From: Escherichia phage 121/2022-2B
Reading direction: 5' to 3' (one strand)
Sequence record: OR958571.1
DNA: 64,000 nt
The translations under genes were made by a program, and so were the position numbers. This document shows positions 31,706-33,002 of this stretch, in pieces. Each line of letters starts with the position of its first letter. Position 1 is the stretch's first letter. A model generated the notes under the pieces. It saw only the letters and a program-made list of their open reading frames with translations, ran no database searches and was not told where the DNA came from.

Positions 31706-32541
31706 TAGAATGCTCCTTGGAAAATATTATCACCACAGGTAGGTCTATTATACAAATACTCTATGCCACCAGGTTTAATATAGTTCCATGTCTGAAACGG
31801 ATGCGTCTGATATGGATGATATAGATTATAAGGATTAAATCCAGGAGTTCTCCAGGTAGTGTTCCAAGGAAAAGAATCGTTTTTAATCATCTTTTCAATT
31901 ACATCTTTTATAGCTTTTTCACTATCAAAACTTTCTTTATTTTCCTTCGATGGAAAAAGCTTATTCTCTACATCATTCCATGTATAAACTCGCTGAGCAG
32001 TTTTTGGAATATTGTCACGCTCCCCTCGAGCCATCCAATACACAGGAACACGTAATATTTCACTCGCATGATCGCAGTGGTGAGCGAGATCGTCGATATA
32101 ACAAATTACGTTATATTTCTCTTTTGCCTTTTTGAACAACTCTTCTTTTGAAGAATCGTGACCACACATCATTACTTCTGAGAAGGCACCAGGAAAAAGA
32201 GCATTCAAATTGAATTGACGATTCAGCAGAGCGTCAATAGAATCACCCAGTGCTGTAACAGCTACAAAATTATAATCTTCTTTTAATTTGTTAATTACAC
32301 ACAGAGCATCTTTATATGGAGACAAGTAACGAATAAAATCCGAACGATTGTATTTTTCAATTAACTTGACGCCAAGTTCTTCATCACAATTAAAGAGTTT
32401 ACCTGGAGAAATAAATTTTTCATCCTGGATCATTTTTAAAATATGTTCTAACGGAAGATTATATTTCTGAGCAAAATAAGGAAGGCCTGATTGCCAGCTT
32501 AAACACACCCCGTCAATATCAGTCAAAATAGTAGGCTTCAT
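31705..32541 (-). CDS. HAD-like hydrolase-type protein (position 30.2)
   Basis: 278 codons; N-terminal DIDGV resembles HAD motif I. Confidence 0.5.
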   Translation of the reverse strand: MKPTILTDIDGVCLSWQSGLPYFAQKYNLPLEHILKMIQDEKFISPGKLFNCDEELGVKLIEKYNRSDFIRYLSPYKDALCVINKLKEDYNFVAVTALGDSIDALLNRQFNLNALFPGAFSEVMMCGHDSSKEELFKKAKEKYNVICYIDDLAHHCDHASEILRVPVYWMARGERDNIPKTAQRVYTWNDVENKLFPSKENKESFDSEKAIKDVIEKMIKNDSFPWNTTWRTPGFNPYNLYHPYQTHPFQTWNYIKPGGIEYLYNRPTCGDNIFQGAF

Positions 32542-33002
32542 AGAGAGTCTCTTAATAGGTTTAACACATCAATAAATTCAGCTTCGGTTAGTATTGTATC
32601 ATCTTTTGTTAGACCACTAGCCATGCTATGCTTCAAAATTTTTCCTTTAGAGGCTTGTAAGGCATCACGAAACCCCTTGTTTTGAATCGCTGCTTCAAAA
32701 TATGCATTTGTATACAACTCTTTCCATGCTGCAGAGTATCTTGAAAAGGGAATTCCAAGCCAGAAAAGCGTCCCACGGTCCGCAGCTCTTGCATAAGCTC
32801 TTCCACTTTGCTGGGCGGCCAATCCGGAGAGCCTAAATATACGACGTTGTTGTTCAACATTTTTCACCTTGCATCCTTGGAGGAATCCTTCAAGACCTCC
32901 GAATTGAATACCATCCATGACGAAAGGCCATTGGGCGAAATTACTTAATGCACACGATGGCCATCTAAAATTGCTTCTAATCTCTAACTCAGACATTTTC
33001 AA
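32538..33002 (-). CDS. NADAR/YbiA-like protein (position 30.3)
   Basis: 154 codons; LSNFAQWPFVMDGIQF...EGFLQGCK resembles the FSNFAAWP...DG...SEHYFQAQK core of E. coli YbiA as I recall it. Confidence 0.55.
   Translation of the reverse strand: MKMSELEIRSNFRWPSCALSNFAQWPFVMDGIQFGGLEGFLQGCKVKNVEQQRRIFRLSGLAAQQSGRAYARAADRGTLFWLGIPFSRYSAAWKELYTNAYFEAAIQNKGFRDALQASKGKILKHSMASGLTKDDTILTEAEFIDVLNLLRDSL

Follow-up and report, generated by a model that had tools for sequence, protein, structure and literature searches.

The minus-strand ORF at 32538..33002 of the window, by which is meant the whole 64,000-nucleotide stretch analysed from Escherichia phage 121/2022-2B (OR958571.1), most probably (at roughly 93%) encodes AdfN, an orphan, antitoxin-like ADP-ribosylglycohydrolase of the NADAR fold that counters DarTG1. 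Its orthology to gene 30.3 of phage T4, its NADAR fold, its intact catalytic residues and its intact C-terminal helix are established here. The enzyme activity and the counter-defence role are drawn from experiments on the T4 protein, with which it shares 95% identity, and the allele in the window would be expected to behave as T4 AdfN does.

Gene Coordinates and Coding Evidence

The ORF list used here opens each reading frame at the first ATG, GTG or TTG, which gives a maximal ORF of 154 codons starting from TTG at this position. The translation contains both ALSNFAQWPFVMDG and EGFLQGCK, the core quoted in the earlier note, so that the ORF it described is present, with its start corrected to an ATG. 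This ATG, at 32996 and two codons 3' of the TTG, is likely the true start and gives a protein of 152 aa; the T4 annotation of 30.3 has the same ATG start and a length of 459 nt, and numbering from it places the catalytic residues at their published positions, E36 and K43. The features of the gene and its immediate junctions are as follows.

32538..32996, minus strand: adfN (T4 gene 30.3) coding sequence, 152 aa, with ATG at 32996 and TGA at 32540-32538; assigned from T4 identity and PF08010
32997..33002, minus strand: the two extra codons of the maximal ORF, TTG AAA, probably untranslated, as the T4 annotation and the published numbering use the ATG
32989..32996, minus strand: ATGTCTGA overlap of the adfN start codon with the stop codon of the upstream gene 30.4, from the sequence and ORF coordinates
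32538..32541, minus strand: ATGA, shared by the adfN stop and by the start codon of 30.2, the next gene downstream (translational coupling), arranged alike in T4
31705-32541, minus strand: gene 30.2, encoding gp30.2 of 278 aa, coupled to adfN by the ATGA overlap, from ORF coordinates
32633-32860, minus strand: internal ORF 30.3', 75 aa, in the +1 frame inside adfN, annotated in T4 (Pfam DUF2883, E=4e-35)
25587-27644, minus strand: Alt-type ADP-ribosyltransferase ORF (PF03496), from Pfam
27648-29744, minus strand: Alt-type ADP-ribosyltransferase ORF (PF03496), from Pfam

The protein matches the Pfam family PF08010 (Phage_30_3) over model positions 1-138 of 138, with E=2.8e-67 and 225.2 bits, where the curated gathering cut-off is 36 bits. 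The adfN gene differs from that of T4 at 38 nucleotides, 27 of them at third codon positions, and only eight of the 38 change an amino acid, a bias that gives the pattern of purifying selection. A tblastn search found the protein in 1509 phage records, with at least 80% coverage in 1502 of these. Judged by its sequence, the ORF is a genuine coding gene and not a chance reading frame.

The same cannot be said of the internal ORF 30.3', for which the substitution pattern gives no support as a true overlapping gene. The 30.3' stretch differs from T4 at 30 nucleotides, and these change 20 of the 75 residues of 30.3' against seven in the overlapping adfN frame. Read in the 30.3' frame, distant homologues often have only short stretches free of stops, the longest being 22 codons in a Proteus phage, 34 in a Ralstonia phage and 37 in a Krischvirus. 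The Pfam family DUF2883 may be an annotation artefact.

Orthology to T4 Gene 30.3 and Gene Neighborhood

The protein is identical to T4 gp30.3 at 144 of 152 residues (95%), aligned without gaps, and the eight substitutions from T4 to the window (G55R, A64S, S67A, Q72A, V82I, P89A, V120I, and I125M) are conservative, leaving the conserved positions of a 58-member family untouched. By tblastn it is 100% identical to its counterpart in Escherichia phage ECP52, and the 4.4 kb surrounding adfN share 97–98% DNA identity with many T4-like (Tequatrovirus-like) coliphages. The order of genes on the minus strand is that of T4, namely 31, rIII, 30.9 to 30.4, 30.3, 30.2, 30.1, DNA ligase (30), alt.1 and alt, and adfN keeps its T4 position between 30.4 and 30.2. 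The source of the window is, on these nucleotide and protein matches, a T4-like coliphage (Tequatrovirus). Together, the coliphage DNA identity, the match to ECP52 and the T4 gene order identify the ORF as T4 gene 30.3, and 32538..32996 is, by the same comparisons, an intact orthologue of it.

The two Alt-type ORFs lie ~2.8 kb downstream of adfN on the same strand, which bears out the setting described earlier for this ORF, in the 30.x cluster near the Alt genes. Both genes, arranged in tandem, are full length. One of the encoded proteins shows 70% identity to T4 Alt, which it matches almost exactly at both ends while diverging in the middle, and the second is 41% identical to T4 Alt, its gene filling the site occupied in T4 by the remnants alt.-1 and alt.-2.

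A promoter and terminator scan of 29500-36500 returned 22 against 25.2 expected and three against 3.7, respectively, with no excess over shuffled sequence. A strong terminator-like hairpin, with a 9-bp stem (GAGGACTCCTTCGGGAGTCCTT) followed by a T-run, is found on the minus strand at 34570-34591, near the 3' end of the 30.9 ORF and upstream of 30.8; the regional count of such hairpins is no higher than in shuffled sequence.

Homologues of adfN in other phages were found in both similar and unrelated surroundings. In five of six Straboviridae loci the homologue is located upstream of DNA ligase, and gene 31 is found further upstream in those loci whose flank extends to it. In the Schizotequatrovirus ValKK3 the adfN homologue is instead followed by an NT5C nucleotidase gene and by genes for exonuclease subunits. 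One Rhizobium phage of the Pootjesviridae and one Ralstonia phage of the Ackermannviridae also carry clear homologues, where the contexts are unrelated, the Ralstonia phage homologue sitting within a tRNA gene array.

NADAR Fold and Catalytic Residues

That the protein has a NADAR/YbiA-like fold, as the earlier note had proposed from motif resemblance, is upheld by the family profile, by profile-profile comparison and by structure, and within the NADAR superfamily the protein falls in the gp30.3/AdfN clade. The profile check proposed in that note came out negative when taken to the letter, as the protein itself has no direct match to Pfam NADAR (PF08719), even at E<=10. PF08010 and PF08719 are separate Pfam families, and the missing match reflects a limit of sensitivity and is not counter-evidence on homology. 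There was likewise no NCBIfam match and no match to a PADLOC defence model for the window protein. At the level of the family the outcome was positive: 23 of the 58 gp30.3-family members match PF08719 on their own (best E=1.5e-7), and several relatives carry the JGI label 'YbiA (DUF1768 family)'. Using the single sequence, phmmer against PDB sequences returned E. coli YbiA as the sole match, at a marginal E=0.48, whereas the profile of the 58-member family reached E=0.0049 against YbiA, and hhalign of the gp30.3 family with E. coli YbiA gave a probability of 94% and E=1.4e-7. No solved gp30.3-family structure was found among the PDB sequences by phmmer. The domain begins at about residue 3 of the 152-aa protein.

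The residues on which the activity would depend, and the C-terminal helix, are encoded as follows.

32889..32891, minus strand: codon GAA, Glu36, the catalytic glutamate, equivalent to YbiA E48 and PnNADAR E43; from sequence and alignment
32868..32870, minus strand: codon AAG, Lys43, the catalytic, phosphate-binding lysine, equivalent to YbiA K55 and PnNADAR K50; from sequence and hhalign
32628..32630, minus strand: codon CAT, His123, located in the final beta-strand and diagnostic of the phage gp30.3 clade of NADARs; from the family alignment
32544..32585, minus strand: C-terminal alpha-helix, residues 138-151, required for full activity and absent from the frameshifted RB69 allele; from the AF2 model and T4 identity

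The E-x(6)-K motif, which comprises the catalytic Glu and Lys of NADARs, is present in the protein. E36 is invariant across the 58 family members and aligns to the SEHYFQAQK motif of YbiA, and K43 is conserved in at least 90% of the family. In alignment the two residues fall opposite YbiA E48 and K55.

The third catalytic position is Asp in DarT1-associated NADARs and Glu in YbiA (PMC11125620, PMC11543638, PMC11825919). In the gp30.3 family H123 is invariant across all 58 members. The hhalign match stops at query L121-K122 versus YbiA L123-V124, one residue before H123; if its register is carried on past K122, H123 comes to lie opposite YbiA E125 in the last strand. A change from Glu to His in the last strand is the described signature of phage gp30.3 NADARs (PMC11125620, PMC11543638).

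At the C-terminus, the AF2 model has a helix at residues 138-151, with block-mean pLDDT of 93–98 over residues 131-152. Residues 126-152 are identical to T4 and there is no indel relative to T4, hence no RB69-type frameshift at nt 411. In T4 AdfN, E36A, K43A and the RB69-type truncation each impair the protein (PMC11825919).

Function and Rival Explanations

The gene, fold, activity and anti-DarTG1 role are already known from work published between 2012 and 2025. In the later papers that cite them, de Souza and Aravind are credited with the NADAR superfamily, including a phage gp30.3 group (cited in PMC11825919, PMC11125620, PMC11543638). NADARs were subsequently found to hydrolyse guanine-linked ADP-ribose on DNA, and their catalytic Glu, Lys and third acidic residue were defined (Schuller et al., 2023; PMC11543638). 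A 2024 study reported that gp30.3 of a phage infecting E. coli removes guanine-ADPr, and not thymine-ADPr, in vitro, noting gp30.3 in T4 and other coliphages (PMC11125620); Johannesman et al. give the assayed protein as T4 gp30.3 (PMC11825919). Johannesman et al. (2025) mapped T-even resistance to DarTG1 onto gene 30.3, which they renamed adfN, and observed that ectopic adfN(T4) allows RB69, whose own adfN carries a frameshift and whose truncation lowers activity, to form plaques again on a DarTG1 host. In the same work, deletion of adfN from T4-GT7 gave a DarTG1-sensitive phage that was complemented by the gene, and purified AdfN stripped ADP-ribose from DarT1-modified DNA (PMC11825919). In a transposon screen in T4, insertions in 30.3/adfN were lost only on DarTG1 hosts (bioRxiv 10.1101/2025.11.20.689424). 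Two suggestions of the earlier note are thus answered by published work on T4 gp30.3 (95% identical): hydrolysis of the ADP-ribosylated guanine made by DarT has been shown for it, and its need on DarTG1 hosts, seen by deletion, complementation and the transposon screen, supports the idea of an anti-defence enzyme.

When a DarTG1 host is infected, the DarT1 toxin ADP-ribosylates guanines of the phage DNA, and this modification blocks replication. By analogy with the T4 protein, AdfN would then cut the N-glycosidic bond that joins ADP-ribose to guanine, with E36, K43 and H123 as its catalytic residues, and cleavage would regain unmodified DNA on which replication could go on. The effect appears to depend on context, as gp30.3 gave no rescue of DarT1 toxicity in uninfected cells (PMC11125620) and T4 AdfN rescues non-T-even phages only weakly (PMC11825919, PMC11125620). 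That T4 AdfN is fully effective only during T-even infection suggests that a further phage factor may potentiate it.

It is very unlikely that this factor is the product of the downstream gene 30.2, or that AdfN has further substrates such as the adducts of Alt-type transferases. gp30.2 is probably an HAD-type phosphatase or nucleotidase, a prediction made from its opening HAD-like motif, TDIDGV, and from its homologues. gp30.2 itself has no Pfam match; its homologue in an Acinetobacter phage shows weak matches to NT5C (E=0.004) and HAD (E=0.047), and in the Vibrio phage ValKK3 the adfN homologue is directly followed by a gene for an NT5C 5'(3')-deoxyribonucleotidase (E=1.5e-12). A single-sequence AF2 model of gp30.2 reached a pLDDT of 36.7.

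As a functional partner of AdfN, gp30.2 is unsupported. Proteus, Acinetobacter and Pseudotevenvirus phages have a 30.2 homologue close to 30.3, and none is present at the loci examined in Krischvirus and in the Rhizobium, Ralstonia and Vibrio phages, a distribution that fits inherited synteny. The paper on the T4 transposon screen makes no mention of 30.2 (bioRxiv 10.1101/2025.11.20.689424).

The proximity of two Alt-type ART genes, 2.8 kb from adfN and on its strand, raises the question of whether gp30.3 is instead a regulatory eraser of the phage's own ART marks (those of Alt and its paralogue here, and of ModA/ModB elsewhere) on host proteins or RNA, with no part in counter-defence. A comparative study has T4-like NADARs expressed early along with ARTs, and an Acinetobacter T4-like phage retains an ART gene near its 30.3 homologue, both of which would agree with such a role. 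The nearness of adfN and the Alt genes is, however, conserved T4 synteny and not a two-gene operon, and the 4 kb flanks examined around the homologue encode no ART in the phages of Rhizobium, Ralstonia and Vibrio or in Krischvirus. Furthermore, every activity shown for gp30.3 has guanine-ADPr DNA as its substrate (PMC11825919, PMC11125620), and the only phenotype given for it in the papers cited is DarTG1 sensitivity, the cited work covering no protein or RNA substrates. This makes an eraser of the phage's own marks very unlikely indeed, and no support was found for the alternative offered in the earlier note, a partner enzyme that would undo ADP-ribosylation by Alt of the phage itself. The shared fold with YbiA, an N-glycosidase of riboflavin intermediates, could point to a protein that degrades soluble ADP-ribose-derived immune signals or NAD-derived metabolites, or to a YbiA-like housekeeping N-glycosidase acting on riboflavin intermediates, and Iyer et al. 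is counted in favour of this. Such a function is extremely improbable given that the gp30.3 clade has His at the defining Glu of the YbiA subfamily, that the closest relatives reported for gp30.3 are NADARs of the DarG1 type (PMC11825919), and that gp30.3 has been shown to act directly on DNA-ADPr, with a phenotype specific to DarTG1 (PMC11825919; bioRxiv 10.1101/2025.11.20.689424).

Whether the allele in the window could be a decayed or inactive copy also has to be weighed, as a frameshifted allele exists in RB69 (PMC11825919) and adfN is disrupted in four database relatives from T4-like phage or metagenome records (P0014, P0016, P0015 and P0045). The gene in the window is nevertheless full length and without a frameshift, its C-terminal helix is identical to that of T4, every family position that is invariant (20/20) or nearly so (18/18) is retained, and its substitutions are concentrated at third codon positions. 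Inactivity is therefore hardly credible, the full length and the retained positions being the main grounds. In the disrupted relatives themselves, P0014 and P0016 switch between the frames of 30.3 and 30.3' near residues 75-80, in the TLFWL region, in a frameshift-like manner, and in P0015 and P0045 the N-terminus of gp30.7 or gp30.8 is fused to the C-terminal part of gp30.3, which is deletion-like. These four sequences may be natural loss-of-function alleles like that of RB69, or sequencing errors.

An AdfN that counters DarTG1 remains the preferred reading. As a discovery this carries small weight, making no advance on the T-even context or on the clade-specific histidine. It is of use for annotation, as the gene is still a 'hypothetical protein' in most phage records among the matches listed, and the DarTG1-type resistance predicted for the phage is relevant to host-range prediction.

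Comparison with Known Systems

The nearest known system is T4 AdfN (gp30.3, PF08010), which the window protein resembles in its 152-aa length, its genomic position, E36, K43, H123 and the C-terminal helix, differing by eight conservative substitutions. AdfN works similarly to DarG1, the NADAR antitoxin of DarTG1 in the BC4488 subfamily (for example, the Geobacter lovleyi NADAR, PDB 8bat). DarG1, however, adjoins a DarT1 toxin gene, whereas adfN in the window is an orphan: its flanking genes 30.4 and 30.2 encode no DarT domain, and 30.2 has no PADLOC match. DarG1 also has an N-terminal extension and a catalytic Asp, whilst AdfN is without the extension and has His123 instead (PMC11825919), and DarG1 cannot be replaced by T4 AdfN in uninfected cells (PMC11825919, PMC11125620). 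The differences in the neighbouring gene, in the extension and in the third catalytic residue place AdfN outside the DarG1 group.

E. coli YbiA (PDB 2b3w) and the Phytophthora NADAR (PDB 8bau), both of the YbiA subfamily, share ~20% identity with the window protein. Members of that subfamily have a Glu in the last strand (E125 in PnNADAR) where the window protein has His123, and this replacement sets AdfN outside the YbiA subfamily. The role of YbiA is one of housekeeping, involving riboflavin intermediates and a LexA-controlled operon, rather than of counter-defence (PMC11125620, PMC11543638).

Two other T4 proteins, AdfM (Tk.4) and AdfA (61.2), have a purpose in common with AdfN, that of neutralising DNA ADP-ribosylation of the DarT type. 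AdfM is a macrodomain protein directed against the thymine-specific DarTG2 (PMC11825919), and for the R164H variant of RB69 AdfA a two-hybrid assay showed direct association with DarT1, with no enzymatic activity described (PMC11825919). Both have folds unrelated to that of AdfN, and their T4 genes (tk.4 and 61.2) lie outside the 30.x cluster in which adfN is found.
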